Origin: Candidatus Peregrinibacteria bacterium
GTDB lineage: Bacteria > Patescibacteriota > Gracilibacteria > UBA1369 > LOWO2-01-FULL-3
DNA length: 64,000 nt
Assembly: GCA_030688025.1 (NCBI GenBank)
Contig: JAUYJL010000009.1
Location: forward strand, 1,503-65,502
Reading direction: 5' to 3'
The notes below the pieces were generated by a model. That model searched no databases. It had not been told where the DNA came from and saw nothing but the letters and a program-made list of their open reading frames with translations. Position 1 is the first letter of the stretch, and each line of letters opens with the position of its first letter. The position numbers and the translations under genes are program-made. Of this stretch, positions 38,825 through 57,371 are shown piece by piece.

Positions 38825-39649
38825 TCAAAGCGGACTTTTAATATTTCGAATACTCGACGCGGAAACCTGAGTATATCTTTGCGTGGTGCGGAGATTTTGA
38901 TGTCCCAAAAGAGTTTGTATGTAACGGATATCGGTGCCATTTTCGAGCAAATGAGTGGCAAAACTATGGCGAAGGCTGTGAAAAGTCGCGTCAGCAAAAA
39001 CGCCAGACTTTAAAAGTGCATTGCTAAAGATTTTTTGCGCAGTACGAGTGGTAAGTCGTCCACCTCGTTCACTTTCAAAAAGGAAATCATTTTTATCTCT
39101 TCCTGCAACAAAATCTATCAAAGGAGAAATCAACTTTTCCGGCAAAATGGTAATTCTGTCTTTATTGCCTTTTGCCTGTATTACGTAAATGATTTTCTCA
39201 GAAATATTCAAATCTTTAACTTTGATTTTTACAACTTCACTAACCCGAAGCCCAGCTCCATAAGCCAAAGAAATCATAAGTCGGTGTTTTAAGTTTGTTA
39301 TGGAATCAATAACTTTCAAAATGTCGTTTTTCGCCAAAACAACAGGAAGTTTCAGGGGTCGACGTGCAAATTTTATATCAATTTTGCAAAAGCATTTCAT
39401 GACATCTCTATAAAAAAACTTAATGGCATTGAGATAAAGATTCACAGTCTCAGGCGCATAATTTTTCAAATGTTTTTGTTTCAAAAAATCTTTAATAATT
39501 TCAACATCGGGAGAAGAAATATCTCTACCGACGAAGTTGAAAAACTCCCTCAAACAAGCCAAATAAGACTTCCTAGTCTGCGGGCTGTAATTTCTGATGA
39601 TGATTTCTCTTTCGGTCTGATTTATGTAAAAAGAATGTTCCATATACAC
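38825..39649 (-). CDS. Integron-integrase-like tyrosine recombinase lacking the IntI-specific additional domain
   Basis: RRPLKLPVVLAKNDI, LAYGAGLRVSEVVKIKVKDL, AKGNKDRITILPEKL, HSLRHSFATHLLENGTDIRYIQTLLGHQNLRTTQRYTQV and a C-terminal IKSPL. It is divergent from the cassette array with the attI-like site about 110 bp upstream. Confidence 0.9.
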   Translation of the reverse strand: MYMEHSFYINQTEREIIIRNYSPQTRKSYLACLREFFNFVGRDISSPDVEIIKDFLKQKHLKNYAPETVNLYLNAIKFFYRDVMKCFCKIDIKFARRPLKLPVVLAKNDILKVIDSITNLKHRLMISLAYGAGLRVSEVVKIKVKDLNISEKIIYVIQAKGNKDRITILPEKLISPLIDFVAGRDKNDFLFESERGGRLTTRTAQKIFSNALLKSGVFADATFHSLRHSFATHLLENGTDIRYIQTLLGHQNLRTTQRYTQVSASSIRNIKSPL

Positions 39650-39716
39650 ACTTATACATCCCCGACTTAAAATATTCTTAAATTTTTCCTGAAATTTTGC
39701 TAAACTCTAAAACCTG

Positions 39717-39746
39717 ATGACAAAACCAACATTGTTCGTATATACT
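39717..39746 (+). promoter_or_regulatory. Candidate cassette promoter (Pc-like) reading into attI
   Basis: ATGACA (39717-39722), 18 nt, TATACT (39741-39746). This is the same -10 hexamer as the lexA promoter, oriented toward the array. Confidence 0.3.
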
Positions 39747-39756
39747 CCCCTCAGAA

Positions 39757-39796
39757 GTTTCTATACGAAAACACTTCGCATAGAAACGAGTTAGCC
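39757..39796 (+). other. attI-like site
   Basis: Imperfect inverted repeat GTTTCTATACGAA-aacac-TTCGCATAGAAAC, followed by GA-GTTAGCC-GAAAT. The GTTAGCC at 39790-39796 supplies the TTAGCC that matches R'' (GGCTAAC) of the first attC. Confidence 0.7.
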
Positions 39797-39846
39797 GAAA
39801 TATCCTTTTATTAAACTCATTATTTAAAATCCTTAACTAAAATGTT

Positions 39847-40362
39847 ATGCACATCAAAAAACGTCCGTTGGTAATTTTTTTATCAATAGTAGCCATCTCT
39901 TTTATTGCTGGGTTGCTATATATGAACAAAGGGGTAGATCCAAACTATTCAATTTCAATTAATGGAAAAAACATAGTTGTTTCTCAGGATAAATGGAAAT
40001 TCGTTGAACCCTTTGAACCAAGTTTATATAGCAAAAATTATAGTGCTATAAATAAAAGAGATGGCCACGAATTTGAGCAGATGATAACAGTCTTTCTACA
40101 AAAAATGACTGACGATAGAAAAATTGGAGAAAAAATTACCAACTCAGAGTATATCGAAGCTTTTGTTGTGCATCCAAATTCAGTTACCGTACAAATCAGA
40201 ATTGATAAAGGTGATTATTGGGTCATGAGTAGAGAAACCTTTGAATCAAAAAATAATTACCCAGATCAAACAGATGTATCTTATTCTGATTTGTTACTGA
40301 ATTTTGAGGATATGCAGAACAGAATCGATAATACAAAATACATTTTAAATAATGAGTTTTAA
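39847..40362 (+). CDS. Cassette 1: membrane-anchored hypothetical protein (171 aa)
   Basis: Single ORF in cassette 39791-40494, with an N-terminal TM helix (LVIFLSIVAISFIAGLLYM). Confidence 0.6.
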   Translation: MHIKKRPLVIFLSIVAISFIAGLLYMNKGVDPNYSISINGKNIVVSQDKWKFVEPFEPSLYSKNYSAINKRDGHEFEQMITVFLQKMTDDRKIGEKITNSEYIEAFVVHPNSVTVQIRIDKGDYWVMSRETFESKNNYPDQTDVSYSDLLLNFEDMQNRIDNTKYILNNEF

Positions 40363-40383
40363 AAAACAATAAAAGGATACATC

Positions 40384-40500
40384 GGCTAACACAGAATATG
40401 CGGTTTCGCTCCCGTTGGTCGCTACACCCATATTTGCCAGCGGTCGCCCTTCGGGCATATTATACCGCTGTCAAACATCGCATATTCTGGGACGTTGTGC
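40384..40500 (+). other. attC 1 (R'' GGCTAAC ... R' GTTGTGC)
   Basis: L'' CAGAATATGCG pairs with L' CGCATATTCTG, and inner TTTGCCAGCGGT pairs with ACCGCTGTCAAA. Spacers are 1 nt after R'' and 4 nt (GGAC) before R'. Confidence 0.85.
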
Positions 40501-40578
40501 GAAATTCTCTTTTGTGAAAAACTGAAAACAAGGATAATTTTGGCACTTTTTAACTCATTAACTCTTAATTTAAAAACT

Positions 40579-41421
40579 ATGAGCGAGCAAACAACATCGA
40601 AACCTTGGTATAAAAAATGGTGGGGAATCATTTTAACAATCGCATTTTTCCCTCTTGTTGTACCATATTTAGTATGGACAAAAACAACTTGGAATAAATG
40701 GGTCAAAATCGCCATAACGGCAGTTTGTGCAATTATTGTTATTTCCAGCATGGTTGATTCCAGTCAAAGAAAGCAGGAATCCTTGGATCTCGTAAATCAA
40801 GCAGAAGTCTTTATCAGTGAAAATAAAATTAGCGATGCTTTGACTGCTTTGAATAAATCTCAAGAACTTAATACTATAAAAAGTGAAAATTCTGCTTTTG
40901 AATTAGAGGAGAAAATAACAAAATTGCAATCAGCAGAGTTTTTGAAAAAGACTTTAGCAGATATGTCAGATAGCGATTTTGACCTTCTACAGAAAGGCGA
41001 GCTAAAAACATCTTTTATCAATCACGATGGACTAAATAAACTTTTCCTTGCAAAGCTACGAGAGAACGCTGATCAGAGAGCCGTATATATTGCTGAAGTT
41101 GAGGAGTTAAGAAAAAAAGAACAAGAAGAAGCTGAGAAGAAAAAACTAGAAGCTGAAGCCAACGCTAGAACAGAAACGATTGAAAAGCAGTTTAGTGCTT
41201 GGGACGGCTCTCACATTAAACTTACAAGATTGATAAAAAATTCCATGAATGACCCAGATAGCTATGAACATGTTGAAACTAAATATTGGGACATGAAAGA
41301 TCATCTTATTGTAAATACAACATTTAGAGGGAAAAATGCTTTCGGCGGAACTGTAAAAAATACAGTAAAAGCCAAGGTTTCTCTTGACGGTGAGAATGTC
41401 GAAATTCTTGAACAATATTAA
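40579..41421 (+). CDS. Cassette 2: two-TM, coiled-coil hypothetical protein (280 aa)
   Basis: The start is set at MSEQTTSKPWYKKWW; the listed ORF start at 40495 is the cassette junction itself. The central region is Glu/Lys-rich and coiled. The C-terminal FSAWDGSH...KNAFGG domain has unknown function. Confidence 0.6.
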   Translation: MSEQTTSKPWYKKWWGIILTIAFFPLVVPYLVWTKTTWNKWVKIAITAVCAIIVISSMVDSSQRKQESLDLVNQAEVFISENKISDALTALNKSQELNTIKSENSAFELEEKITKLQSAEFLKKTLADMSDSDFDLLQKGELKTSFINHDGLNKLFLAKLRENADQRAVYIAEVEELRKKEQEEAEKKKLEAEANARTETIEKQFSAWDGSHIKLTRLIKNSMNDPDSYEHVETKYWDMKDHLIVNTTFRGKNAFGGTVKNTVKAKVSLDGENVEILEQY

Positions 41422-41475
41422 AGCGGATAAAAAGTGCCAAAATTGAATTAGATTTTTTTCACAAAAGAGAACATC

Positions 41476-41552
41476 GCACAACAGCGTGTATGCGGTTCCG
41501 CTACGCTCCACCCATATTGCTTCGCAACATCGCATACACGCAAACGTTAGCC
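41476..41552 (+). other. attC 2 (R'' GCACAAC ... R' GTTAGCC)
   Basis: L'' GCGTGTATGCG pairs with L' CGCATACACGC. There is 1 nt on the R'' side and AAAC on the R' side. Length is 77 bp. Confidence 0.85.
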
Positions 41553-41645
41553 GAAATTCAAAAAATATTTTCCTATAATTAAAGAGTTTTGATAGGCTCT
41601 TAGAAAATAACAAGCTTTATATAATCCACTAACAACATAAAAAAT

Positions 41646-42041
41646 ATGAAAGTACTTATCATCAAAAACGCACTAATACATTTCCTCCTGATTCCATTCT
41701 ATATTTTCACAGCAAAAGAAGTTGCACTCATGCCAGCAGATAGATGGGATACACTTCTTTTATTTATTGGTCTGATTGTCATAGCGCCAATTACCAGCAA
41801 CTTTATCTACAATTACAAAAATGCTGAAACTCAAAAAGCGATAAACTGGGGGCATGTAACGACATTTTTCTCAATGCTGGTAATTGGCATGCTGTTCATA
41901 GCTTTAGATGTTCTTCTCGTTTTAATGGTCGGAAATGTATTAGTTTTTAGATTAGTGCTTGCTCTTTTCTGGCTAGCCGTAGTTACATTTGATTTTGCAG
42001 ATTTTCTGACAAATACAAAGAGCCTATCAAAACAAAAATAA
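41646..42041 (+). CDS. Cassette 3: small 4-TM membrane protein (131 aa)
   Basis: Four hydrophobic helices; no family recognised. Confidence 0.55.
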   Translation: MKVLIIKNALIHFLLIPFYIFTAKEVALMPADRWDTLLLFIGLIVIAPITSNFIYNYKNAETQKAINWGHVTTFFSMLVIGMLFIALDVLLVLMVGNVLVFRLVLALFWLAVVTFDFADFLTNTKSLSKQK

Positions 42042-42113
42042 GGGAAAATATTTTTTGAACTCGCTCCTTTCAGTCGCGCCCCGCTGCGCTCTCCTCCCTT
42101 TGGTCGTCGGGTC

Positions 42114-42226
42114 GGCTAACACTGCATAACAGGTTCGGCTCTTGCAGAGCCTCACCCAAATTGCGCAGGTGTGAGCCTTCGGCTATTATACACCTGCGCA
42201 ACTTCTGTTATGCAGGAACGTTATAT
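42114..42226 (+). other. attC 3 (R'' GGCTAAC ... R' GTTATAT)
   Basis: L'' CTGCATAACAGG pairs with L' TCTGTTATGCAG, and inner TTGCGCAGGTGT pairs with ACACCTGCGCAA. The R'-side spacer is GAAC. Confidence 0.85.
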
Positions 42227-42267
42227 GAAATGCTTTTGGGGCTAACTTTATTTGATACAATCAAAAC

Positions 42268-43182
42268 ATGAAATTTCAATTAACGGAACCGAACAAACAA
42301 TATTCAAATGCTGAACTCATAGAAGATATTCAAAGAGTTGCAGGTGAGCTCGGCAAAAATTCTGTATCCCAACGAGAATATGATCGATTGGGCAATTTTT
42401 CGTATCAGACATTCAAAAAGAGGTTCGGTTCCTGGAAAAGTGCATTAAAAGAAGCTGGGCTTGAACAAAGCAAGCGTCCTTGGGGTGGTGATTTAACAGA
42501 AACACGCATACCCAAAGAACAGCTTATTGCAGATATGAAAAGAGTTGCAGGCGAACTGGAAAAACAAGCTATCACAATTGCTGATTATGATAAGCATGGA
42601 AAGTTTGGCTCTTCGGCAATCTGTAAAAGATTTGGTGGCTGGAACAAGGCAAAAGAAGCAGCAAATCTGAAAATCGGAAGAGTTTATAATTCAACAGACG
42701 AAGACTATTTTGAAAACATAGCTGATGTTTGGGAACATCTTGGTCGCCAACCACGATATCAAGAAATGACAGCACCACTTTCAAAATTAAATATATCATC
42801 ATACGAGCGAAAATTTGGAACATGGCGAAATGCTCTCGAAAAATTTGTTGAATATATAAACTCTAAAGACGACGCCGAAGAGCCGCAAGAAGCAATCGAG
42901 CCAAAGAAATCAGCAATTGTTCCTAAAAAAGAAGAGAAACCAATAAAAAAGCAGGTGGTTAAAAAAAGAACCAACCGCATTGCAAATCTACGACAGAGAT
43001 TTAGAGTAATGAAAAGAGATGGTTTCAAATGTGTATTGTGTGGAAGTTCGCCAGCAACTCAAGTAGGCTGTGAATTGCATATAGATCACATCATACCTTG
43101 GAGTAAAGGTGGTGAAACTGTAGAGGAAAATTTAAGGACGCTTTGTTCAAGCTGTAATTTAGGAAGATCAAATAAAGAATAA
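42268..43182 (+). CDS. Cassette 4: HNH endonuclease with three N-terminal ~55-aa repeats
   Basis: C-terminal CVLCGS...HIDHIIPWSKGGETVEENLRTLCSSCN is an HNH motif. The N-terminus has three copies of ...(Q/D)YD(R/K)...(F/Y)...KRFGSWK(S/N)AL.EAGL-type repeats (homing-endonuclease-associated repeat). Confidence 0.85.
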   Translation: MKFQLTEPNKQYSNAELIEDIQRVAGELGKNSVSQREYDRLGNFSYQTFKKRFGSWKSALKEAGLEQSKRPWGGDLTETRIPKEQLIADMKRVAGELEKQAITIADYDKHGKFGSSAICKRFGGWNKAKEAANLKIGRVYNSTDEDYFENIADVWEHLGRQPRYQEMTAPLSKLNISSYERKFGTWRNALEKFVEYINSKDDAEEPQEAIEPKKSAIVPKKEEKPIKKQVVKKRTNRIANLRQRFRVMKRDGFKCVLCGSSPATQVGCELHIDHIIPWSKGGETVEENLRTLCSSCNLGRSNKE

Positions 43183-43204
43183 TGAACCGCCCCAAAAGCA
43201 CATC

Positions 43205-43282
43205 ATATAACAAGGCATATACGGCTACGCTACGCTTCGCCCATATTGCTATCGCAACATCGTATATGCCGAAACGTTAGCC
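43205..43282 (+). other. attC 4 (R'' ATATAAC ... R' GTTAGCC)
   Basis: L'' GGCATATACGG pairs with L' CGTATATGCC. The R'-side spacer is GAAAC. Length is 78 bp. Confidence 0.85.
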
Positions 43283-43326
43283 GAAATTGAAAGTAATTTT
43301 TTTATTCCTTTAACCAAAATCAAAAC

Positions 43327-43605
43327 ATGGAAAAGTATTTCATTTTAGCAATAACATTTGCATATAGCATCGGCGGTTTAGTCACATTCGCAGGATTTTT
43401 TCCAACAATGAAGGATTTATGGAAAGGAAAACCAAGTGCAAATGTGCACACCTACATAATTTGGTCGATAACAACCTTCCTTACATCTTTATATGCAATA
43501 TTTGTTGTCAAAGACTTGGTTTTCAGTTTGGTTATCAACCTACAATTAGCGGCATGTTTAATAGTTTTGATTTTGAGATTAAGGCTAAAATTAAAAAGAA
43601 CATAA
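43327..43605 (+). CDS. Cassette 5: small 3-TM membrane protein (92 aa; SemiSWEET/PQ-loop-like topology)
   Basis: Three hydrophobic helices in 92 aa. The family assignment is only a guess from topology. Confidence 0.45.
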   Translation: MEKYFILAITFAYSIGGLVTFAGFFPTMKDLWKGKPSANVHTYIIWSITTFLTSLYAIFVVKDLVFSLVINLQLAACLIVLILRLRLKLKRT

Positions 43606-43665
43606 AAAAATTACTTTCAACTCAAGGGGACGCTGCGCTTTCGCTCCCTTCAGTCGCTCACCCTC

Positions 43666-43783
43666 GGCTAACACTGAATGTGCGGTTCGCGGCTTGCAGC
43701 CGCTCTCCCATATTCACTGGCGGTGAATCGCTTTGCGATATATTATACCGCCAGTGAACATCGCACATTCAGAAACGTTAGGC
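43666..43783 (+). other. attC 5 (R'' GGCTAAC ... R' GTTAGGC)
   Basis: L'' CTGAATGTGCG pairs with L' CGCACATTCAG, and inner TTCACTGGCGGT pairs with ACCGCCAGTGAA. The R'-side spacer is AAAC. Confidence 0.85.
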
Positions 43784-43873
43784 GAAAGAAGAAAAAGCAT
43801 TTGTATTTTACAGTCGACTTGACAAGTCGCCAAAAAAAAGTATAAAGTAGAAAACTATTAACACATACTATTT

Positions 43874-44101
43874 ATGGAAAAAATACAATGTCCTGGTTAT
43901 TACTATAAAAATCGTGAAATGCAGCCAGCCTTTCCTGATGATAAAGTTGATGCATTAGTCCAAGAAGTAGATGGCGAACTCATAGTAGCATGCCCATTTT
44001 TAAGACAACCTACTGAGGCCAGCCCATTGTTATGCGGAAGAATACTTCAGATAACGCATACTGACGAAGTAGCGGCTGGCTGCCCCTATTCAACAAAGTA
44101 A
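43874..44101 (+). CDS. Cassette 6: small Cys-containing hypothetical protein (75 aa)
   Basis: Single ORF in cassette 43778-44239; no family recognised. Confidence 0.45.
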   Translation: MEKIQCPGYYYKNREMQPAFPDDKVDALVQEVDGELIVACPFLRQPTEASPLLCGRILQITHTDEVAAGCPYSTK

Positions 44102-44119
44102 ACCGCTTTTTCTTCCATC

Positions 44120-44245
44120 GCCTAACAATGAATAACTGGTTCACTCCTTCACTCCGTTCAGTCGTTCTCCCAAATTTGGCGGCGGTATGTCGCTCCGCTC
44201 CAAATTTTACCGCCACCACACTTCAGTTATTCATGGACGTTAGCT
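44120..44245 (+). other. attC 6 (R'' GCCTAAC ... R' GTTAGCT)
   Basis: L'' ATGAATAACTGG pairs with L' CAGTTATTCAT, and inner TTTGGCGGCGGT pairs with ACCGCCACCACA (imperfect). The R'-side spacer is GGAC. Confidence 0.85.
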
Positions 44246-44474
44246 GAAATATTCCTTTTCTTTTCTGGGCTATCGCCCAATTGTTTTAAAAAATTTTCAA
44301 ATTTCTTTTTCTTTTTTATAAGGGGAAATATGGAGTTTTCTCCGCTCTGCTACGAAAACACTTGTTTTGTAGAGGGGAATAGCGGTGTTTCCTCCGCTTC
44401 GCTCCAGAAACTCTTTATATATTAAGGGAAAAATACTATACTACCATTAACCCGCCTTTGAACATAAAAACCCT

Positions 44475-46535
44475 ATGGAAATTAATTTCAAAAGTAAATT
44501 ATTTGAACTACTAAAAAGAGACCATCGTCTTTGGAATGAAGAGACCAAGGAATTCAATGAAACTCTTTTAAAAGATTTAGTGGATAAGCTGGATGAAAAT
44601 ATCCTCGAGCTACTTTTTAATAACGCGGAAACAAAAGAACGATTTTTCATAAAAATAAAGGATGTTTATGTATTAAAGCAAAACGAGTTAAAATTTTTCA
44701 TTGATGAAAATAAATTAGACAATTCATTTACCCAGCTTGCCAATAAAATTGGCCTCACCATAGATGACAAAAAAGACGAAAGGGTTGTTTTGAACTGGCC
44801 ATTTAAGGATTGTGTATTAGAGGGCGGCATGACAAAAGAAGACGCTGTTGATGTTTATTATAAATTTGATAAAAAGACCGGCGAATGGAAAGAGGAGGCC
44901 GCAAAGAGAAAAGAAATTTTCTTTAATGAAGTTTTAGCTCGCGATGAAATAGACCGGCTTGAAGATCCAAAAACTCTTTATAAGTGGCGAAGATTTACTG
45001 CTGAAAATTCTGAAAATGGAGAAGAGTTAAAAGAAATAAAGAGAGACGAAAAAGGGATTATAAAGGAAAATTTTGTAATCAAAGGCAATAATCTACTTTC
45101 ATTACATAGCTTAAAATCTCAATTTGAAGGGAAAATAAAACTTATCTACATAGATCCCCCATTTAACACTGGTAAGGATGAATTCAAGTATAATGACAAC
45201 TTTAATCATTCTGCATGGCTAACTTTCATGAAAAACAGGCTAGCGGTAGCAAAAGAATTATTAAGAGATGACGGCGTAATTTTTGTACACATTGGCAATG
45301 AGGAAGCGGCATATATGCAAGTTTTATTAGATGAAATTTTTAACAGGGAAAATTATTTGAATCATATTACAATGAGTACTAATGCGGCATCTGGATTTAA
45401 AGCTACCAGTGCTAAAATATTTTCAACAGCAAACCATATTTTTGTTTATGCCAAAAAAGCAGATAAGGGGTATTTGAATAAGTTATATACAAGAAAAGAA
45501 TATGATGATAGTTACGGATATTATTTACTAAATCCAAGCGAACCATATTCAAGATGGAAGTACAAAAAAATTATTGAAATACTCGCCGAAGAAAATGGAT
45601 TTAAAGATGTGAAATCTTTTCAGAAAAGTTTCGCCAAAGAAATTATACTGGAAAAAATAAAAAAATTTGCACATCTAAATAAGGAAAGAGTATTCCGGAC
45701 TGCAGCATTAGGCGGAGGCGCACTTACGAAAAGAAAAGTCACTGTAGAAAAATCCAAAAAAGAAAAAGGGGTTGTTCTCCAACATCCAAATGAAGACGTG
45801 AAAGGTTTTTATATTTTAAATGGAGAACAGATCGTTTTTTGGTCAAATACCTATAAAGAAATTGATGGAGATATTGTGCCAGCAACATCCCTCACAGATG
45901 TATGGACTGACATCGGTTTTACTGGAATCGCAAATGAGGGTGGTATAACCTTAAAAAATGGCAAAAAACCTGAACCTCTCCTTAAAAGGATAATTGAATT
46001 AGGATCAAGCGAAAATGATATAGTACTTGATTTCTTCGCTGGCAGTGGAACCACTTGCGCGGTGGCCCATAAAATGGGACGACAGTGGATTGCCATCGAA
46101 CAACTTGATTATTCTGATAATAACCCTGAGGAAAGAATGAAAGGGGTCATTGCTGGCGATCCTACTGGAATTTCCAAAACAATAAATTGGAAGGGTGGAG
46201 GTGACTTTATTTACACGCAACTGGCAAAATGGAATGAAGAGGCAAAAGAAAAAATTTCTGAAGCAAAATCTTATGATGAGTTAGTGAAGCTATTTTCATT
46301 GCTCTATGAAAAATATTTCCTAAATTATAATGTGCGAGCAAAAGATTTTAAAGAAAGCATAATAGAAAACAATGAATTCAAAAAACTTTCACTCGAAAGA
46401 CAAAAGGAAATATTTGGAAAAATGCTCGATCTAAACCAGATGTACATAAATTTCAGTGAAAGGAATGATAAAAAATATGAGCTAACATCAAGAGATATAG
46501 AACTCAGTGAAAAATTTTATAATGTGAAAAATTAA
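44475..46535 (+). CDS. mod: Cassette 7: Type III restriction-modification methyltransferase (Mod)
   Basis: LIYIDPPFNTGKDEF (motif IV, DPPF) precedes DFFAGSGTTCAVAHKMGRQWIAIE (motif I), a beta-class order typical of Type III Mod. The res gene follows immediately. Confidence 0.88.
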   Translation: MEINFKSKLFELLKRDHRLWNEETKEFNETLLKDLVDKLDENILELLFNNAETKERFFIKIKDVYVLKQNELKFFIDENKLDNSFTQLANKIGLTIDDKKDERVVLNWPFKDCVLEGGMTKEDAVDVYYKFDKKTGEWKEEAAKRKEIFFNEVLARDEIDRLEDPKTLYKWRRFTAENSENGEELKEIKRDEKGIIKENFVIKGNNLLSLHSLKSQFEGKIKLIYIDPPFNTGKDEFKYNDNFNHSAWLTFMKNRLAVAKELLRDDGVIFVHIGNEEAAYMQVLLDEIFNRENYLNHITMSTNAASGFKATSAKIFSTANHIFVYAKKADKGYLNKLYTRKEYDDSYGYYLLNPSEPYSRWKYKKIIEILAEENGFKDVKSFQKSFAKEIILEKIKKFAHLNKERVFRTAALGGGALTKRKVTVEKSKKEKGVVLQHPNEDVKGFYILNGEQIVFWSNTYKEIDGDIVPATSLTDVWTDIGFTGIANEGGITLKNGKKPEPLLKRIIELGSSENDIVLDFFAGSGTTCAVAHKMGRQWIAIEQLDYSDNNPEERMKGVIAGDPTGISKTINWKGGGDFIYTQLAKWNEEAKEKISEAKSYDELVKLFSLLYEKYFLNYNVRAKDFKESIIENNEFKKLSLERQKEIFGKMLDLNQMYINFSERNDKKYELTSRDIELSEKFYNVKN

Positions 46536-50591: not shown

Positions 50592-50761
50592 AATATTTTT
50601 CAATATTTTTTCTTTAATAAGGAATTTTTGTTGAAGAATTTAAAAAAGGATGGAATTTTTATTTTAATGAGGGGGATATAATGTATTTTTTGCTCCGTTC
50701 CTCCGCAAAAAATGGATTTAATATTTAATGGAAAATCAGTATAATACCACTGTAAAACACT

Positions 50762-51598
50762 ATGGCTAAAAAAACTCAATCAAAAAGATTAACGAATCAG
50801 CATAAAAAATCTCAAGGTGTAGTCGGTATATTCTGTAACGAAGCAAAGTTACATGATAAAACGGTTTGTAAAATTTCATACCTTGTAATTGAACAACTTA
50901 AAAAGGAACTTCCTCAGTTATCTTTTAGATATAGAACGTGTATAAAAAAGGAAGAAATAAACAAAGCGTTAAAGAAAATTGATCCAGAATTGGGGCAAAC
51001 CCTTTTTGTGCCAAATTCAAGTATTATTCCAGATGGTGGTATAATTGAAGTAAAAGATGATAGTGGTAATTGGAGAGTAGTACTTGTAACAGAAGCTAAA
51101 CATCAAGGAAAAGACATTGAAAATATACAAATAGGAAATCTAGTTGGTAAAAATAACAATCAAGACTTAATGGCTGCTGGCAATGCCATAGAAAGATCGC
51201 ATAAAAACATATCAGAAATTGCCAACTTTATGCTATATGAATCCCATTTCCCCTATATCTTATTCCTGGAAGGATCAAATTTTCTTACTAAAACTATTTC
51301 AATTAAAAGACCTGACGGAAGAGTGGTTACTCTTAATTATAACTCAGGCATGTTAAATAGATTGGATAGATTAACTTGTGCAAATTATGGAATGCCAATT
51401 AACACTAATTTATGTAAAAATAAATTTGTTAAACATAAAGATAAAACGATTATGCTTCAAGCAGCTTCAATTTTTACACAAGGAAATGGAGGAAAGTGGG
51501 ATGTAAAAGAAATGTTTGATATTATGATTGAAATTTCAAAAACCTCTCTTCAAGTATTAGGAAGTGAAATATTTAAACAAATAACCAAGCGAAAATAA
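50762..51598 (+). CDS. Cassette 9: EcoRI-family Type II restriction endonuclease
   Basis: Near-colinear similarity, from memory, to R.EcoRI. This includes PQLSFRYR, IIPDGGIIEVKDD, WRVVLVTEAKHQGKDI (catalytic D...E-A-K), QDLMAAGNAIERSHKNISEIANFM, FLEGSNFLT, YGMPIN and IMLQAASI. Length is 278 aa versus 277 aa for EcoRI. Confidence 0.88.
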   Translation: MAKKTQSKRLTNQHKKSQGVVGIFCNEAKLHDKTVCKISYLVIEQLKKELPQLSFRYRTCIKKEEINKALKKIDPELGQTLFVPNSSIIPDGGIIEVKDDSGNWRVVLVTEAKHQGKDIENIQIGNLVGKNNNQDLMAAGNAIERSHKNISEIANFMLYESHFPYILFLEGSNFLTKTISIKRPDGRVVTLNYNSGMLNRLDRLTCANYGMPINTNLCKNKFVKHKDKTIMLQAASIFTQGNGGKWDVKEMFDIMIEISKTSLQVLGSEIFKQITKRK

Positions 51599-51627
51599 GA
51601 GATTTATTCATTTAACATAATCTGATA

Positions 51628-52683
51628 ATGGCAAGAAATGCAACAAACAAATTATTGCAAAAAGCTAAGGAATCAAAGAGTGATGAGTTTTACACTCAAC
51701 TTTCAGATATAGAAAGTGAATTGCAACACTACAAAGGTCATTTTAAGGACAAAGTGGTTTTTTGTAATTGCGATGACCCTAAAATTAGCAACTTCTTTAA
51801 CTATTTTGCTTCAAACTTCAAAGAGTTGGGATTAAAAAAAATAATAGCTTCTTGTCATAGAAAACAAGAAAGAAATTTATTTAATACTAAAGAATTTGAA
51901 AGTGGTTATTTTTATGAATATTCAGGTGCTCCGGGAGAAAAAATAAACCCAAGTTCAAATGACATGATTCATTTTAAAGGAGATGGCGATTTTCGCAGCA
52001 CTGAAAGCATTGAACTATTAAAACAATCCGATATTATTGTTACTAATCCACCATTTTCGTTATTCAGGGATTTCGTAGGTCAATTGGTAAAATATGATAA
52101 AAAATTTTTGATAATAGGCAACGTTAATGCTATTACCTATAAAGAAATTTTTAAATTAATTAAGAAAAACAAGGCGTGGCTAGGAATAAATCTAGGTAGA
52201 GGTATTTCAGGTTTTATTGTACCAGAACATTACGAGCTTTACGGAACGGAAGCTCGTATCGATAGTCTTGGAAATAGAATAATCTCCCCAAATAACTGTT
52301 TATGGCTAACTAATTTAGACACATCCAAAAGGCACGAAGACATTATTCTTACAAAGAGATATTTTGGAAACGAAATTGATTATCCCCGTTACGATAACTA
52401 TGATGGAATTAATATAGATAAAACAAAAGATATTCCTTTAGATTATGCAGGCGTTATGGGAGTACCAATAACCTTTTTACATAAATACAATTCAGAGCAG
52501 TTTGAAATCATTAAATTTAGAAAAGGAAATGATGAGAAAGATTTGTCAGTAAACGGGAAATGTCCTTATTTTAGAATCTTAATCAGAAATAAACGCATAC
52601 AGAAGACTGGCAGTTGTCATGCAAGAATTGCAACAGATCAATGTCAGGAATATAAAATGATACCAATACAAACTTTATTATGA
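51628..52683 (+). CDS. Cassette 9: EcoRI-family N6-adenine DNA methyltransferase
   Basis: MARNATNKLL..SKSDEFYTQ, CNCDDP, GDGDFRS, IIVTNPPFSLF (motif IV NPPF), YDKKFLIIGNVN, GFIVPEHYELYGTEARID, NNCLWLTNLD, GVMGVPITFLHK and CPYFRILI all follow M.EcoRI as I remember it. There is an extra ~25-aa tail. Confidence 0.88.
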   Translation: MARNATNKLLQKAKESKSDEFYTQLSDIESELQHYKGHFKDKVVFCNCDDPKISNFFNYFASNFKELGLKKIIASCHRKQERNLFNTKEFESGYFYEYSGAPGEKINPSSNDMIHFKGDGDFRSTESIELLKQSDIIVTNPPFSLFRDFVGQLVKYDKKFLIIGNVNAITYKEIFKLIKKNKAWLGINLGRGISGFIVPEHYELYGTEARIDSLGNRIISPNNCLWLTNLDTSKRHEDIILTKRYFGNEIDYPRYDNYDGINIDKTKDIPLDYAGVMGVPITFLHKYNSEQFEIIKFRKGNDEKDLSVNGKCPYFRILIRNKRIQKTGSCHARIATDQCQEYKMIPIQTLL

Positions 52684-54176
52684 TAAAGACAATAACCATC
52701 CAAAATTTTAGAGGTATAAGGGAACTAAAAGATTTTGAACTCAAAAATCTTTCATTGCTTGTTGGTGAAAATGGAACAAGTAAAACCTCTATTTTAGAAG
52801 CGATAAATTTTTGTCTTTCTCCTTATTTTATATCTGGAAGAATTAAACATACAGATTTTTACAAAGGTGAAGATATTGAGATAAAAATTATTTTGGAATT
52901 TGATGAAAATTTCAAAGTCTTTTTGCCTGATGGCTATACCAAACAAGAGGTTGAGTGCAATAAGGTTTGTTTAGAAATAAAAAAAAGAGATAGGGCGACT
53001 CCCAAAAAGGCATTTTCGGACATTGTTGTTGTTTCTCATTATGTTTTACCAAGCAAAGAAAAAGATAATGAAAATGGTTGGGAGATAACACGAGGAACGG
53101 GATCAAAATTTAAATTTGATGAAAGACGGTTGTCTTTTCCTTTGGAGTCAGAAGGGCTACCAAAAAGTTTTTATTTTCCAAAAAACCGAGAAAAACAATT
53201 GCAGAGAGGCTTTAATTCTTCTATTTCTTCAGTTTTTGATGACTTTAATTGGAGATTCAATAAAGAAGTAAGAAAAATTGAAACAGAAGAAAATTTTAGT
53301 GGAGAAAAATTTACATCTCAAAAAAATAATTTTGAATCAAGTATTTTAGAAAAAATTGATGAACAATCACAACAAAAGACATTCCAGACACTAAACGAAA
53401 AACTGGAAAAAGTAGGTTTACCAAAAGCTGATCTTTCACTAATTGATTGCAATGCGCCTTTTGACAATGCTTTTCTTTCTCAAAAATTAGAATGTTTAGA
53501 CTTGCCTATATCTCAACTTGGGTCAGGTGTTGAAATGGTTGTTTCTTTATTGTTTTTAGAAACAATGGCAGAAATTTCAAAAGAAAATATCTTGATTTTA
53601 ATTGATGAACCAGAGCTACACCTACACCCAGATTTACAAAATAATTTTATTGATCACATAGTATCAATTTCTGAAAAAAATCAATTTCTATTTTCTACTC
53701 ACTCCCCACTTTTCGTTAAACAAACATTAAATAATGAAAATGGAAAAATTCAAATTCATTGTTTGGAAAAAGAAAATGGAGAAGTAAAAATTTTAGAATT
53801 AGAAAAAAGAGTTTTGCCGTATGTTTCAGCTAACGAAGTAAATTTTATTGCTTTTGGGTTAGCAACAGAAGAATATCACAATGAACTTTATAATGAGATT
53901 GAAATAAATTTTTGGAATGATCCAGATAATGATTTTAAAACATTGAAACAAAACGGAAGTTATGACAATAATGACTGTCGTCAAATTATTTTTGATAACG
54001 AATTTTTCTCAAAATTTAAACAAGAACAAATAGATAGTCCTTTTAGGACTACTCAAAATAAAGTAACAATCCACACCTACATTAGAAATAGAATTCATCA
54101 CTCTAAAGAAAATGGAGAAAGTCCAACAACACAAGAATTAAAACAATCCATAGAGAAAATGCGAGGATTTCTTTAA
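52680..54176 (+). CDS. Cassette 9: ABC/OLD-like (AAA_15/21-type) ATPase with a non-TOPRIM C-terminal domain
   Basis: Walker A GENGTSKTS, Walker B ILILIDEPELHLHP and H-loop FSTHSP. The ~115-aa C-terminus has no DxD/TOPRIM motif but contains RNRIHH (an Rx4H pattern). The start codon overlaps the methyltransferase stop (ATGA). Confidence 0.75.
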   Translation: MIKTITIQNFRGIRELKDFELKNLSLLVGENGTSKTSILEAINFCLSPYFISGRIKHTDFYKGEDIEIKIILEFDENFKVFLPDGYTKQEVECNKVCLEIKKRDRATPKKAFSDIVVVSHYVLPSKEKDNENGWEITRGTGSKFKFDERRLSFPLESEGLPKSFYFPKNREKQLQRGFNSSISSVFDDFNWRFNKEVRKIETEENFSGEKFTSQKNNFESSILEKIDEQSQQKTFQTLNEKLEKVGLPKADLSLIDCNAPFDNAFLSQKLECLDLPISQLGSGVEMVVSLLFLETMAEISKENILILIDEPELHLHPDLQNNFIDHIVSISEKNQFLFSTHSPLFVKQTLNNENGKIQIHCLEKENGEVKILELEKRVLPYVSANEVNFIAFGLATEEYHNELYNEIEINFWNDPDNDFKTLKQNGSYDNNDCRQIIFDNEFFSKFKQEQIDSPFRTTQNKVTIHTYIRNRIHHSKENGESPTTQELKQSIEKMRGFL

Positions 54177-54182
54177 TAAGGT

Positions 54183-54231
54183 GTTTTTCTTTTTCCAATT
54201 CACCCCTAACCCCTCTTGGAAAAAGAAAAAC
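54183..54231. repeat. Conserved-loop hairpin H3
   Basis: GTTTTTCTTTTTCCAA - TTCACCCCTAACCCCTC - TTGGAAAAAGAAAAAC, a perfect 16-bp stem. Confidence 0.75.
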
Positions 54232-54308
54232 GAAAAATAAAAATTCCAAATAGAAATAAAATTCTTCAACAAAAGAATAAGGAATGAAAAAATATTGAAA
54301 AATACATC

Positions 54309-54435
54309 GCACAACAACTCATATCTGGCTCAAGAAATTGACACATTAATATTTCAAAGGAAAGTCAATTTCTTTCGACCCAAATTTTTGCTTCACTACG
54401 TTTTGCAAAAACTTCAGATATGAGTAACGTTAGCC
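54309..54435 (+). other. attC 9 (R'' GCACAAC ... R' GTTAGCC)
   Basis: L'' CTCATATCTGG pairs with L' CAGATATGAG. An inner hairpin is GAAATTGAC...GTCAATTTC. The R'-side spacer is TAAC. Confidence 0.85.
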
Positions 54436-54662
54436 GAAATACATTTTTACTATTCCCTTTTTGTCGCTCCGCTTTTCGGACTTTTAATAAGGAGGGGCGA
54501 ATTGATTCTTTATTTTTAGAGGGGGGGGCTGTCTGCCTTTGGCAGCCAGTAAGGTATTTTCTTGCTCCCTTCGGTCGCTACGAAAAATTTAGAATTATTT
54601 TAGAAATATTTAATAATTGCATGATATAATCACTACGAAATTTTAAATAAATCAGAATAAAT

Positions 54663-56255
54663 ATGAACACAACAGAACAAAACGAATTATTAAGTATTCA
54701 AGAAGCAAGCACATGGGCTAGCTCATTTTTGAAGCGCGTCGTTACAGAAAGCAACATTTCATATCTAATTCAGTATGGCAGAGTTAGAAAAATTGGAGAA
54801 AATGGCACAACTCAAATAATAAAAGCAGATTTACTTAGATATTACGAAAAAAGTCGCCCTAGTCGTGAAATATCATGGAAAAAAACGCTTGGAGATGACT
54901 TAAACTGGTCTTTATCTTTTGAACAATATAGAGAATCTGAAACCACAAAGCATGTTCATCGGTTACATCCATACAAAGGAAAATACATTCCTCAACTTGT
55001 TGAGTATTTTTTAGACGATCACACGGATAATTTTAAGAAACAAACTTATTTTAAAAAGGGTGACATCATTCTTGATCCATTTTGTGGAAGTGGAACAACG
55101 CTTGTGCAAGCAAATGAATTGGGTATGCACTCAATCGGGATAGATATTTCCGCCTTCAATTCCTTAATTTCAAACATTAAAATTGGAAAACATGACTTTG
55201 AAGAACTCACCCTGGTAATTAAGCAAATTACTAACAACTTGGAAAAAATTTTAAAGGACGCACACGCAATAGATTTTGAATCAGAACTATTAAAAGAGCT
55301 AAATCAATTCAATTCAAAAAATTTCCCCTCTCCGGAATTTAAGTACAAAATACGCCAAGGACAGGTTGATGAAAGAAAATTTGGAAGCGAAAAAGAAAAA
55401 GAATTTCTGAAAATTTACGATACATTGGTCAAAAAGTATGGAATTAAATTAAAACAACAAAAAAATGAAACATTCTTAGATAAATGGTATCTACAAGCAA
55501 TCAGAGATGAAATAAATTTCATGTTTGAGCAAATTAAGCAAATCAAAAATCCAGACATCAAAAAAGTAATAAGTGTTATTTTAAGCCGTACTATCAGATC
55601 TTGCCGTGCAACAACCCATTCAGATTTAGCAACGCTCAAGGAGCCACAAATAACAACTTATTATTGCAAAAAGCACGGGAAAATGTGCAAACCTCTTTTT
55701 TCAATTTTGAGCTGGTGGAAGCGATATGCTCAAGACACAATGTATAGGTTTAAACAATTCGAAAAATTACGAACTGATACAAAACAAATTTGCTTAACAG
55801 GTGATTCAAGAGAAATAGATATTTTTGGAGAACTAGATAACCGTTATCCCGATTTTGCTAAAATCGTAAAAACTCAAAAGATTAAAGGTATTTTTTCTTC
55901 ACCTCCTTATGTTGGATTGATTGATTATCACGAACAACATGCCTACGCCTATGATCTCTTCGGATTTAAGCGCAAAGACGAATCTGAAATAGGCCCGCTT
56001 TTTCGAGGACAAGGATTAGAAGCAAGAAAAAGCTATATTGAAGGGATTTCATCTGTACTGCTAAATTGCAAAAAATTTCTAGCAGATGATTTCTCCATAT
56101 TTTTAGTAGCCAATGATAAATGGGGTATGTATCCTGAAATTGCTAAAAAAGCAGGACTAAAAATTGTTGAAGAATTTAAAAGACCCGTTTTAAACCGTAC
56201 CGAAAAAGACAAAGGAGCGTATTCAGAGATAATTTTTCACTTAAAAAATAATTAA
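54663..56255 (+). CDS. Cassette 10: DNA methyltransferase (N4-C/N6-A amino-methyltransferase, SPPY motif, alpha-like order)
   Basis: ILDPFCGSGTTLVQANELGMHSIGIDIS (motif I) lies about 270 aa before IFSSPPYVGLIDY (motif IV). The N-terminal segment LSIQEASTWAS... looks like a small HTH. Confidence 0.82.
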   Translation: MNTTEQNELLSIQEASTWASSFLKRVVTESNISYLIQYGRVRKIGENGTTQIIKADLLRYYEKSRPSREISWKKTLGDDLNWSLSFEQYRESETTKHVHRLHPYKGKYIPQLVEYFLDDHTDNFKKQTYFKKGDIILDPFCGSGTTLVQANELGMHSIGIDISAFNSLISNIKIGKHDFEELTLVIKQITNNLEKILKDAHAIDFESELLKELNQFNSKNFPSPEFKYKIRQGQVDERKFGSEKEKEFLKIYDTLVKKYGIKLKQQKNETFLDKWYLQAIRDEINFMFEQIKQIKNPDIKKVISVILSRTIRSCRATTHSDLATLKEPQITTYYCKKHGKMCKPLFSILSWWKRYAQDTMYRFKQFEKLRTDTKQICLTGDSREIDIFGELDNRYPDFAKIVKTQKIKGIFSSPPYVGLIDYHEQHAYAYDLFGFKRKDESEIGPLFRGQGLEARKSYIEGISSVLLNCKKFLADDFSIFLVANDKWGMYPEIAKKAGLKIVEEFKRPVLNRTEKDKGAYSEIIFHLKNN

Positions 56256-56256
56256 T

Positions 56257-57054
56257 ATGGCACTATCAAAAGATTTACAACAGAAGGTTTATGAATTTCT
56301 AAAGGGGAAAATCCTTAAAAAAATTGATGAATACAACTTGAGCGATGAAGACTCATCAAAACCTTTTCAATATGCTCTTTTTACAAAAAAGGGTTACTTG
56401 GCTAAAGGATTTATTCATGGATGTGAAACAGCACTTGGAAATTGGCACGAAACCATAGCGAAAATTATTGCCACTGAAAATTTTGCAACTGCAAATAAAT
56501 TACAAGGACAAAACAAATTAAAAGGTAAAATCACAAGAGAGGCACAAAGAACATCTGAAAATATTTTAAGTGATCTTGATAGCGTTAAGAGAGAACCAAA
56601 TCACAAGTCAGAGTCAGAAGAAATTTTTAATGCTAGCCAAAACCTCGAACAAACAGAGGACAGAATACAAACTGTTGATCTCTACCTAGAAACAAAAGAC
56701 GGTGAAGAAATTTATTTTGAAATAAAGGGACCTAAGCCAAATAAAAACGAAATGAGAGCAGCAAAAAGAGATTTGCTAGAAATATATGCAATGAGATCAG
56801 CGGAAGGCAAGAAAGTAAAAATTTATTTAGGCATGTACTACAACCCATATTATCCCGAAGAGTACCAAAGATGGACATGTATAAAATTCTTTGATAAAGG
56901 TAATGACTTTCTTATTGGCAAAGACTTTTGGGACTTTTTAGGCGGAAACGGAGCTTATGAGGAATTAATTGATATTTATGAAAAAGTCGGAGAAAAAATA
57001 AGACCAGTGCTAGATCAAAAGTTCAAGGACATTGCAAAAAATCAAGAAGAATAA
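56257..57054 (+). CDS. Cassette 10: PD-(D/E)xK Type II restriction endonuclease (family uncertain, possibly TdeIII-like)
   Basis: VDLYLETKDGEEIYFEIKGPKPN fits D-Xn-E-X-K. The gene starts 2 nt after the methyltransferase stop. The family name is only a recollection. Confidence 0.6.
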   Translation: MALSKDLQQKVYEFLKGKILKKIDEYNLSDEDSSKPFQYALFTKKGYLAKGFIHGCETALGNWHETIAKIIATENFATANKLQGQNKLKGKITREAQRTSENILSDLDSVKREPNHKSESEEIFNASQNLEQTEDRIQTVDLYLETKDGEEIYFEIKGPKPNKNEMRAAKRDLLEIYAMRSAEGKKVKIYLGMYYNPYYPEEYQRWTCIKFFDKGNDFLIGKDFWDFLGGNGAYEELIDIYEKVGEKIRPVLDQKFKDIAKNQEE

Positions 57055-57057
57055 AGT

Positions 57058-57106
57058 GTTTTGGCTCGGGCAATTCACCCCCGGCCCCTCTTGCCCTCGC
57101 CAAAAC
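57058..57106. repeat. Conserved-loop hairpin H4
   Basis: GTTTTGGCTCGGGCAA - TTCACCCCCGGCCCCTC - TTGCCCTCGCCAAAAC, with 14/16 stem pairs. Confidence 0.7.
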
Positions 57107-57238
57107 AGAATCAATTCGCCCCTTATAAATAAGTGAAAAGCGGTCGTGACATCGGGAATAGTAAAAATGTACTTCGTTCGGTCGCTACGCTCCCTCCGAC
57201 CACGCTGCGCTCTCGCTCCACTGCGTTACGCTCGGGTC

Positions 57239-57371
57239 GGCTAACACAGCATAACAGGTTCGGGGCTCGGCTCGCCCCTCACCCAAATTGCTTGTTCGCT
57301 TAGGCGGTGCACTCCGTGCTATTATACCGCCACGCTCACTTCGCAACTTCTGTTATGCTGGAACGTTAGCT
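57239..57371 (+). other. attC 10 (R'' GGCTAAC ... R' GTTAGCT)
   Basis: L'' CAGCATAACAGG pairs with L' TCTGTTATGCTG. The R'-side spacer is GAAC. It is closely related to attC 3. Confidence 0.85.

Follow-up and report, generated by a model that had tools for sequence, protein, structure and literature searches.

An integron-like cassette array beside an I2-less tyrosine recombinase in Candidatus Peregrinibacteria and related bacteria of the Candidate Phyla Radiation

In this study, we analyzed a window of 64 kb (the whole stretch of DNA under study) from a metagenome-assembled genome (MAG) labelled Candidatus Peregrinibacteria, and in particular its region 38825-57371, in which a tyrosine recombinase gene stands divergent from an array of ten gene cassettes. 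Bacteria of the Candidate Phyla Radiation (CPR) have tiny genomes and symbiotic lifestyles. An integron, by the IntegronFinder / Messier & Roy definition, has an integrase with the IntI-specific additional domain, which includes helix I2 around patch III. The array described here is integron-like, yet it stands outside the integron family so defined: both helix I2 in the recombinase and the extrahelical bases in the cassette-end sites are missing. The best reading of the data is that the platform works like an integron and is built from parts of the Xer/dif type. We consider it probable that it represents a chromosomal, CPR-wide system of integron-type cassette capture, in which an I2-less recombinase that groups with IntI proteins acts on hairpins mimicking dif in single-stranded form.

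A first-pass annotation had proposed an integron-like platform with a divergent recombinase, an attI site and cassettes. This proposal was upheld by the recombination footprint, by covariation within the sites, by a conserved attI in related loci, by homology between relatives that is limited by the junction, and by the association of sites with the recombinase gene across loci. The CPR-like background that it had noticed agrees with the label of the source MAG. Throughout, the comparison loci are the best 80 among the listed matches to one family-specific peptide pattern in GTDB species representatives. A covariance model was built from the window's own ten sites and then run on the window and on these 80 loci.

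Cassette array and recombination footprint

The ten cassettes are bounded by ten sites of 77-142 nucleotides (nt), each with NNNNAAC at the start and GTTNNNN at the end, and all ten were confirmed at the positions and lengths first proposed. They lie on the plus strand at 40384-40500 (site 1, 117 nt, 112.5 bits with the covariance model), 41476-41552 (site 2, 77 nt, short type, 80.1 bits), 42114-42226 (site 3, 113 nt, 105.9 bits), 43205-43282 (site 4, 78 nt, short type, 72.1 bits), 43666-43783 (site 5, 118 nt, 108.2 bits), 44120-44245 (site 6, 126 nt, 111.9 bits), 49510-49636 (site 7, 127 nt, 123.9 bits), 50448-50589 (site 8, 142 nt, AT-rich, 86 bits), 54309-54435 (site 9, 127 nt, AT-rich, 74.5 bits) and 57239-57371 (site 10, the last of the array, 133 nt, 91.5 bits). 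The palindromes had been described as GC-enriched, which holds for eight of them (GC 0.46-0.55 vs approximately 0.33 in the background) and not for sites 8 and 9 (only 0.35).

The covariance model gave no match beyond these ten in the whole 64 kb window, and its specificity was such that 265 kb of loci encoding distant recombinases yielded one marginal match. A spacer-aware scanner also recovered 10/10 sites, with 0-3 matches per shuffle in shuffled sequence; an ungapped arm-matching scan recovered none of them, because the two spacers of a site are of unequal length (1 nt vs 4 nt). The output of a generic inverted-repeat finder on the window was swamped by unrelated pairs. Scanning against Rfam at the gathering threshold returned one tRNA only, and no family for the sites or for the loop-conserved hairpins described below.

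The footprint of recombination can be read from the cassette boundaries. The 6 nt that follow the upstream G of GTT are the reverse complement of the same cassette's own 3' box in 10/10 cassettes, with exactly the hexamers first reported: TTAGCC/GGCTAA, TTGTGC/GCACAA, TTAGCC/GGCTAA, TTATAT/ATATAA and TTAGCC/GGCTAA for cassettes 1 to 5, and TTAGGC/GCCTAA, TTAGCT/AGCTAA, TTATGT/ACATAA, TTGTGC/GCACAA and TTAGCC/GGCTAA for cassettes 6 to 10. Six different hexamers are thus used among the ten. In the same-site control, where the R'' box of a site is compared with its own R' box, full complementarity was found in 0/10 sites of the window and in 7/116 sites of other loci. When the hexamers were shuffled, 10/10 was reached in 14 of 1,000,000 trials (p ~1.4e-5; 75,600 distinct orders), in agreement with the earlier judgement that chance is implausible. 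The rule is not confined to the window: among 66 neighbouring site pairs of other loci it is exact in 34 and holds with at most one mismatch in 53, the shuffle expectation being 5.25.

Folded sites, attI and the recombinase

Across related loci, the sites range from 57 to 196 nt in length, and the consensus boxes of 113 of them read RYATAAC ... GTTATGY-GAAAT, with AAC in 111/113 and GTT in 100/113. The sites had been assigned boxes of the RYYYAAC/GTTRRRY type; the AAC and GTT ends are confirmed, and the strict forms occur in only about a quarter of these sites (27/113 for RYYYAAC and 23/113 for GTTRRRY). Read along the top strand, a site shows (ACATC)-RYATAAC, one A, the L'' arm of 11 nt, GTTC and a variable branch that is often GC-rich; CCCAWAT and a second hairpin follow, and then AACWTC joined to the L' arm of 11 nt (often CGCATA..), RRAC, GTTATGY and GAAAT. 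The central part of the sites also holds conserved motifs. As had been noted at first sight, the L'' and L' arms vary in sequence and stay complementary: in the sites of the window, 97% of L-stem positions are paired and compensatory changes are found at 8/11 pairs, and in 113 sites from many genomes the corresponding values are 95% paired and 10/11 covarying pairs. All shuffled and slid controls gave far lower scores. No extrahelical base is present in the L stem in 109/113 sites (5' arm) and 102/113 sites (3' arm); the asymmetry of the site is instead located in the spacer, which is fixed at 1 nt (A) on one side and 4 nt (RRAC) on the other.

The consensus fold of the bottom strand, obtained from 16 long sites, begins with an R stem that an invariant G.T pair closes, continues through a bulge of 3 nt and the L stem, and branches at a three-way junction, whose first hairpin holds a second, nearly invariant G.T pair. 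Both G.T pairs exist on the bottom strand only, their top-strand equivalents being A.C mismatches. Folding of the bottom strand, one of the checks proposed at the outset, was found to be more stable in 100/111 sites (mean -2.4 kcal/mol, p 7e-17). Together, these G.T pairs and the stability bias suggest selection on the bottom strand in its folded single-stranded form, which is also the situation in integron attC sites. In every cassette site, the attI pattern is repeated in the 3' half; if the 3-nt bulge is looped out, the distance from CGCATA to GTT equals that in attI, and the folded site would thus mimic attI.

As a separate observation, GC-rich degenerate motifs of the CGCTCC or TCGCTnCGCT type occur at 42057-42113, 43624-43665 and 57175-57238 and inside sites 1, 2, 4 and 6. 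In this genome of 33% GC, they cluster just upstream of several sites and in the 5' branch.

The attI core of the window (39773-39801, plus strand) is dif-like. It consists of an L arm ACTTCGCATAG (39773-39783), a spacer AAACGAG (39784-39790) and an R arm TTAGCCGAAAT (39791-39801), that is, two imperfect inverted arms of 11 bp with 7/11 dyad symmetry around a 7-nt spacer (layout 11-7-11). The crossover would lie between G39790 and T39791. The first junction, GTTAGCC, is at 39790-39796 as originally read, and the crossover is 147 nt from the start codon of the recombinase gene instead of the approximately 110 bp first estimated. For comparison, we used E. coli dif as confirmed in MG1655, GGTGCGCATAA-TGTATA-TTATGTTAAAT, the R arm TTATGTGAAAT of attI and the folded sites, which are dif-like as well, being set against TTATGTTAAAT. 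Over the 22 arm positions, the window attI shares 7+7 with dif and the consensus attI 7 (left) and 10 (right); the attI spacer is one base longer than that of dif. The consensus aATTCGyATAgAAAcGAG|TTAt.tgAAAT is found in 65/68 related loci, mostly 100-160 nt upstream of the gene start, and in generalised form attI can be written as an L arm TTCGCATAG, a 7-nt spacer and an R arm TTRRRYGAAAT. Upstream of the core, accessory arm-type boxes are present at 39732-39769 (no strand assigned), namely TTGTTCGTATATAC at 39732-39745 and the inverted TTTCTATACGAA at 39758-39769, and further boxes of the TTCGTATA type, direct or inverted, stand upstream of attI in many related loci. In L035, about 35 nt past the attI junction, a site seems to begin at once (ACATC-GTACAAC-A-CGGGATATCTGG); it may be an empty cassette missed by the model.

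The recombinase gene is on the minus strand, divergent from the array as proposed. Its most likely start is ATG 39643 (gene 38825-39643, 272 aa) and not GTG 39649, to which the open reading frame (ORF) extends; the 272-aa product is identical to a database protein, P0001, from a Candidatus Peregrinibacteria MAG. All catalytic residues (R..K..HxxR..H..Y) are present, the C-terminus is IKSPL, and the Pfam domains are Phage_integrase and a SAM-like N domain. None of the curated models was passed. The best NCBIfam match was XerA_Arch (213.4 bits, cut-off 220), followed by the integron integrase TIGR02249 (187.8 bits, cut-off 265, with the match split in two stretches), XerC (179.8 bits, cut-off 335) and XerD (162.9 bits, cut-off 330). 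To judge by NCBI names, some homologues pass the XerA model, and the label on some family members is 'site-specific tyrosine recombinase/integron integrase'.

The recombinase lacks the I2 additional domain of approximately 42 residues that is specific to IntI. In the alignment to VchIntIA (2a3v) it is gapped across integrase residues 183-244, and the alignment to IntI1, a sequence that thousands of plasmids carry at 100% identity, leaves 42 additional-domain residues without a counterpart. An AlphaFold model (pLDDT, the predicted local distance difference test, 85) likewise predicts no helix at 181-198. Among structural matches of the model, XerA 5hxy and VchIntIA 2a3v rank equally at the top, with XerD, XerH and lambda Int well behind. 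The protein has several IntI features that E. coli XerC/D do not have, namely LPVVL, an IntI-type spacing in the N-terminal domain and SPL at the C-terminus. A small neighbour-joining tree of 254 columns placed the CPR proteins together with canonical IntIs (98% bootstrap), with XerA, XerC and XerD outside. Thousands of relatives with 55-68% identity to the recombinase are found in CPR MAGs, distant lineages included. It is the only tyrosine recombinase encoded in the window, and the comparison loci likewise have no other. A search of plasmids by tblastn returned only recombinases of at most 39% identity, with no arrays beside them, and a scan of viral contigs gave no relative above 34% identity, the best matches there being canonical IntI-like proteins that keep the additional domain.

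Some viral contigs deserve separate mention. The IMG/VR contigs L093-L096 encode IntI-like proteins of 314-331 aa with the full additional-domain motif (ALVRKYPQAPLQWGWQYVFP); these resemble canonical integron integrases, and the contigs are labelled viral. L098 is a viral contig of 63 kb with a 277-aa recombinase, 33% identical to the query; upstream of this gene, a marginal model match, the only one among the viral contigs, was obtained at 2753-2896 (22.8 bits, E 0.002), and the contig may carry a distant relative of the system.

From these data, a mechanism can be sketched, the simplest being integron-type recombination by an I2-less enzyme. The bottom strand of a cassette-end site would fold into a dif mimic with an R stem, a 3-nt spacer bulge, an 11-bp L stem with CGCATA and a branched tip. 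Cleavage by the recombinase would take place at AA^C of the bottom strand, which corresponds to G|TT of the top strand, both in the folded site and in its partner, either attI or another site; one strand pair would be exchanged, and the junction would be resolved by replication. As an outcome, cassettes would leave as circles and re-insert at attI, and excision as a circle with re-insertion at G|TT would make each cassette begin with the complement of its own 3' box. There is a known parallel for this scheme. XerC/D, which have no I2, recombine the folded single-stranded dif mimic of CTX-phi, which has no extrahelical bases, and CTX-phi integration involves the exchange of one strand pair and the resolution of the junction by replication (PMC4246890; PMC4792948). 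Because I2 and the extrahelical bases of attC have been described as co-evolved (PMC4792948), their joint absence from the CPR system is internally consistent.

Related loci and alternative explanations

In the 80 comparison loci, the covariance model gave 117 matches in 348 kb upstream of the recombinase gene and none in 625 kb downstream, and all 117 are on the strand divergent from the gene. Of the 51 loci whose upstream sequence extends for 700 nt or more, 47 had at least one site. In 29/80 loci (L007-L084), the contig stops no further than 700 nt upstream of the gene, as expected of an assembly confronted with a repeat-rich or heterogeneous array; so many contigs broken just upstream of the gene suggest a systematic assembly break, of which the array itself may be the cause.

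Cassette content changes at a fixed junction among genus-level relatives. Three related genomes (L001, L002 and L004) have both flanks in common with the window and carry different cassettes from the G|TT junction onward. In L001/L002, whose recombinase is 88% identical, the flanking genes are likewise purH and, on the opposite side, two purP-like genes; the interval from attI to purH is occupied by LysE, GNAT and toxin-antitoxin genes and contains three sites, of which one is decayed. Nucleotide homology to the window ends at the junction, at 39802 in L001 and at 39793 in L004. L089 and L091 also share attI with the window but carry other first cassettes. An exact-pattern attI scan of metagenomes returned four loci only. 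The search for cassette variation in relatives, suggested at the outset, thus had a divided result: turnover is visible between species and not within the population that encodes recombinase P0038, where 23 contigs from different samples with the identical protein all have the same array.

Several points weigh against the platform as we read it, the last-mentioned among them, since the lack of array polymorphism in the P0038 contigs indicates that turnover is slow or currently absent in that species. In the neighbour-joining tree, which is crude, the node joining the CPR proteins has 43% support only. Some large cassettes contain several genes and leaders with promoter-like (-10-like) sequences of their own, unlike typical integron cassettes. 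Two promoter-like sites were seen at the platform, a candidate cassette promoter (Pc) facing the array (39717-39746, plus strand, ATGACA-18-TATACT, 10/12 consensus positions) and another facing the recombinase gene (39694-39723, minus strand, TTGTCA-18-CAAAAT, 9/12), and both calls are consensus matches only. As the comparison loci were the best matches to one peptide pattern, the figures speak for the sampled CPR species. Finally, the recombinase as the acting enzyme, single-strand exchange and replicative resolution are all presumed.

Among the rival explanations, the one that survives best, which we nevertheless regard as unlikely, is that the recombinase is the single housekeeping Xer protein of CPR bacteria and attI the chromosomal dif beside its gene; cassettes resembling IMEXs (mobile elements that integrate by making use of Xer) would hitch-hike and accumulate there, and capture would be a by-product. 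The dif-like attI suits this explanation, given its 11-7-11 layout and a consensus that agrees with dif at 17/22 arm positions, and so do the high conservation of the family among distant CPR lineages, its standing as the sole tyrosine recombinase of each locus and the absence of close relatives from the viral contigs. There are precedents as well: recombinases of candidate phyla in the 'Cand' subgroup have been suggested as Xer stand-ins (PMC8138268), and the XerS gene is linked to its dif site (PMC2731167). Against it, the flanking genes vary by lineage, with purP/purH in the window and rpmE/prfA in L173, and the GC skew has the same sign on both flanks in 10/14 loci and in the window, so that the place is not obviously a terminus, a weak indication that refers to 10 kb flanks. 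In this weak test, attI as the terminus dif was accordingly unsupported. The protein also clusters with IntI rather than XerA/C/D (98% bootstrap in the crude tree) and has the IntI-type LPVVL, SPL and N-domain spacing, and no replication or phage functions are encoded by the cassettes. The two roles are compatible, and a dual role as Xer and in cassette capture is possible.

It is far less probable that the array is a cluster of attC sites lacking integron-integrases (CALIN) and depends on a normal IntI supplied in trans, from a gene located elsewhere in the genome or in the community, the adjacent recombinase being unrelated. CALINs occur commonly, and over a wider range than complete integrons do (PMC9668308), and the sites are like attC in their AAC...GTT boxes and G|TT crossover. 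However, the recombinase gene, an attI at a near-constant distance and a divergent array occur together in 47/51 loci of distant lineages with no site downstream, no IntI was seen in any locus, the R boxes are closer to dif than to RYYYAAC/GTTRRRY, and the sites do not have the extrahelical bases that IntI needs for strand choice (PMC4792948). The strict linkage to the recombinase gene and the missing extrahelical bases make service in trans unlikely. We dismiss the view that no recombination is involved and that the palindromes are terminators or repetitive extragenic palindromic (REP)-like intergenic repeats beside a recombinase by chance: the sites do follow stop codons, fold stably and remain unchanged as arrays within one species, but terminators leave the own-cassette hexamer rule unexplained, the fold bias favours the bottom, non-transcribed strand, homology between relatives breaks exactly at G|TT, and the association with the recombinase is strict in both strand and side.

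Returning to the integron-type platform built from Xer/dif-type parts, its similarity to integrons (including sedentary chromosomal ones such as the Vibrio superintegron) extends from the divergent recombinase gene, adjacent attI and co-oriented cassettes ending in AAC...GTT imperfect palindromes to the G|TT crossover, the complement of the own box, the better-folding bottom strand, a mixed cargo with defence genes and content that varies between relatives. The differences are that the CPR recombinase has no I2 and falls below the integron-integrase cut-off; that its sites have no extrahelical bases in the L stem and show a fixed 1- vs 4-nt spacer, a 3-nt bulge and a conserved three-way junction; that resemblance to dif and sequence conservation across the sampled lineages mark the R and L boxes as well as attI; and that several CPR cassettes are multi-gene with a leader of their own.

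An IMEX is a phage or satellite that brings its own replication genes and is inserted singly or in a few tandem copies, and the integration of CTX-phi is irreversible. The anatomy of the CPR sites matches the CTX-phi IMEX in its folded dif-mimic strand without extrahelical bases, used by an I2-less recombinase. In contrast to it, the CPR arrays line up small non-replicative cassettes, ten or more at the upper end, next to the recombinase gene, every cassette having a complete site, and one CPR recombinase takes the place of the XerC/XerD pair. With the single-recombinase systems XerS/difSL, XerH/difH and archaeal XerA/dif, the CPR system shares a short, simple recombinase and a core of two 11-bp imperfect inverted arms, and with XerS/difSL also the linkage of site and gene (PMC2731167); archaeal XerA provides the best NCBIfam match of the recombinase and one of its two best structural matches. 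Those systems, however, have one site and no cassette array, and a spacer of 6 nt vs 7 nt in CPR; the CPR locus shows no skew switch, and its protein groups with IntI in the crude tree.

Smyshlyaev et al. (2021; PMC8138268) described the 'Cand' subgroup as Xer-related simple tyrosine recombinases from candidate phyla and possible Xer substitutes, a description that fits the CPR family; the recombinase family has probably been catalogued already, but no attI, hairpin sites or cassettes were reported in that paper. Archaeal integrons (Ghaly et al. 2022; PMC9668308) are likewise integron-type arrays found through MAGs in uncultured lineages beyond the classical host range; however, archaeal IntIs retain the additional domain, and the folding of archaeal attC sites is like that of bacterial ones, neither of which is true of the CPR system. 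In the pdif modules of Acinetobacter, accessory genes lie between Xer-binding dif-like sites and are thought to be mobile by Xer recombination (PMC7399989); these are double-stranded XerC/D sites of alternating orientation on plasmids, with no hairpins, one-way array or adjacent dedicated recombinase. Our full-text literature searches found nothing relevant on integrons or cassette arrays in CPR/Patescibacteria and no published description of CPR attI, hairpin sites or arrays, and CPR is not mentioned in the IntegronFinder 2.0 survey. Since standard integron detection requires the additional domain, such arrays would at best be reported as CALINs, and the intI_Cterm check suggested at the outset would be expected to fail.

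Anatomically, the arrays stand between Xer/dif-IMEX systems and integrons. Escudero et al. (PMC4792948) have called the origin of the I2/attC pair a chicken-and-egg paradox and speculated on a Xer-like ancestor with IMEX-like cassettes. We tentatively suggest that the CPR arrays are 'proto-integrons', whose recombinase would be sister to the integron integrases, would never have acquired I2, would capture dif-mimic hairpins at a dif-like attI and might double as Xer. With the same reserve, they could be viewed as a living intermediate between Xer/IMEX systems and integrons, of the kind proposed by these authors (PMC4792948). The arrangement does recur beside the recombinase family in most CPR species sampled, and it resembles the intermediate proposed in the origin of integrons. 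Were the suggestion correct, integron-type gene capture would be general in a major bacterial radiation from which it has had no earlier description. The origin of the I2/attC pair becomes testable with cassette arrays that have the full footprint, lack I2 as well as extrahelical bases and retain dif-like sites, and such arrays supply the material for a test of integron origin in the form of real sequences and a clonable enzyme of 272 aa. If the platform is what it appears to be, CPR bacteria would also own a dedicated route to accessory and defence genes, here with three restriction-modification systems in one array.

Cargo, cassette elements and flanking genes

All long ORFs from 39.8 to 57.4 kb are on the plus strand, as had been stated, and the cargo of the cassettes is accessory. 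The window array holds three restriction-modification systems, an HNH nuclease, a methyltransferase and five small proteins without assignment. Cassette 1 (39791-40494, 704 nt, plus strand like all that follow) starts with TTAGCC, ends with its own R'' GGCTAAC, and has an ORF at 39847-40362 for 171 aa with no Pfam match. Cassette 2 (40495-41546, 1052 nt; ORF 40579-41421) encodes a membrane/coiled-coil protein of 280 aa with no significant Pfam match, and no Pfam match was obtained for the products of cassettes 3 (41547-42220, 674 nt; ORF 41646-42041, 131 aa), 5 (43277-43777, 501 nt; ORF 43327-43605, 92 aa) and 6 (43778-44239, 462 nt; ORF 43874-44101, 75 aa, Cys-rich). Between them, cassette 4 (42221-43276, 1056 nt) carries an ORF at 42268-43182 for an HNH endonuclease of 304 aa with HNH-associated repeats. 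Cassette 7 (44240-49630, 5391 nt) consists of a conserved leader (44240-44474) and a type III restriction-modification pair, Mod at 44475-46535 (686 aa) and Res at 46538-49321 (927 aa). It is followed by cassette 8 (49631-50583, 953 nt; ORF 49658-50437, 259 aa), which encodes an S-adenosylmethionine (SAM)-dependent methyltransferase. The second system, in cassette 9 (50584-54429, 3846 nt), combines an EcoRI endonuclease (50762-51598) and EcoRI methylase (51628-52683) with an AAA_15 ATPase (52680-54176), and the third, in cassette 10 (54430-57365, 2936 nt), a DNA methylase (54663-56255) with a TdeIII-type restriction endonuclease (56257-57054).

Beyond site 10, a plus-strand segment without a site (57372-58231) starts with TTAGCT-GAAAT and contains a DsrE-like ORF (57533-57853) and an ORF for 98 aa (57929-58225). 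It has no homology to L001, where homology is found for purH (from 58233), and a model search of 57372-58400 with filters off revealed no further site. The segment is either a terminal cassette minus its site or the ancestral right flank of attI.

Across loci, the median cassette length is 883 bp, and the longest ORF is on the cassette strand in 54/59 cassettes. The cargo is mixed, with Fic, GNAT and NUDIX proteins, methyltransferases, an ABC transporter, a radical SAM enzyme and many ORFs without a Pfam family; recombinase genes and replication or phage functions were not found among the cassettes. A tblastx comparison of the ten window cassettes with all loci detected likeness only at the level of sites and leaders, and therefore no direct case of one cassette in two arrays.

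The conserved non-coding leader of the large cassettes is found in the window at 44240-44474 and also at 50584-50761 and 54430-54662, and is common to the first cassettes of L027, L079, L047, L018, L037, L074 and L070, which belong to distant CPR lineages. Its elements follow the order GAAATATTCCTTTTCT, the GGGCTATCGCCC hairpin, AAGGAGAGGGG, the GTTTTCTCCGCTtCGCTmCGAAAAC hairpin and a TGnTATAAT-like -10 sequence. At the other end of these cassettes, there are hairpins with a conserved loop: two in tandem, with the loop TTCACCCC..CCCCTC, past the last stop of cassette 7 and ahead of its site (49325-49379 and 49391-49445), one at 54183-54231 after the last ORF of cassette 9, and one at 57058-57106 after the last ORF of cassette 10, all on the plus strand. 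The element can be summarized as a loop TTCACCCC-N2-7-CCCCTC on a variable, compensating stem with the flanks TAAGGnGTTTTGG...CCAAAAC. We found 22 more copies in 16 loci (e.g., L037 7311-7327 and L057 7758-7774), always on the cassette strand, just after the last stop of a large multi-gene cassette and 80-150 nt before its site. The hairpin may act as a terminator, as an RNA element or as a site for protein binding. GAGGGG in the leader is complementary to CCCCTC in the loop of the 3' hairpin, and an interaction between the two may be imagined as a speculation.

The platform is flanked by two adjacent purP-like genes (DUF1246/DUF1297, 35605-37854) on one side and by purH (58232-59770) on the other; the occurrence of purine-synthesis genes in a CPR genome is itself worth noting. 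The segment between the recombinase stop and the purP-like genes (37916-38824) contains a HepT-like toxin gene (38271-38663) and an overlapping ORF for 109 aa (37958-38287). This segment is missing from L001 and its place is taken in L004 by a helix-turn-helix (HTH) gene, which indicates that the position just downstream of the recombinase gene is also variable.

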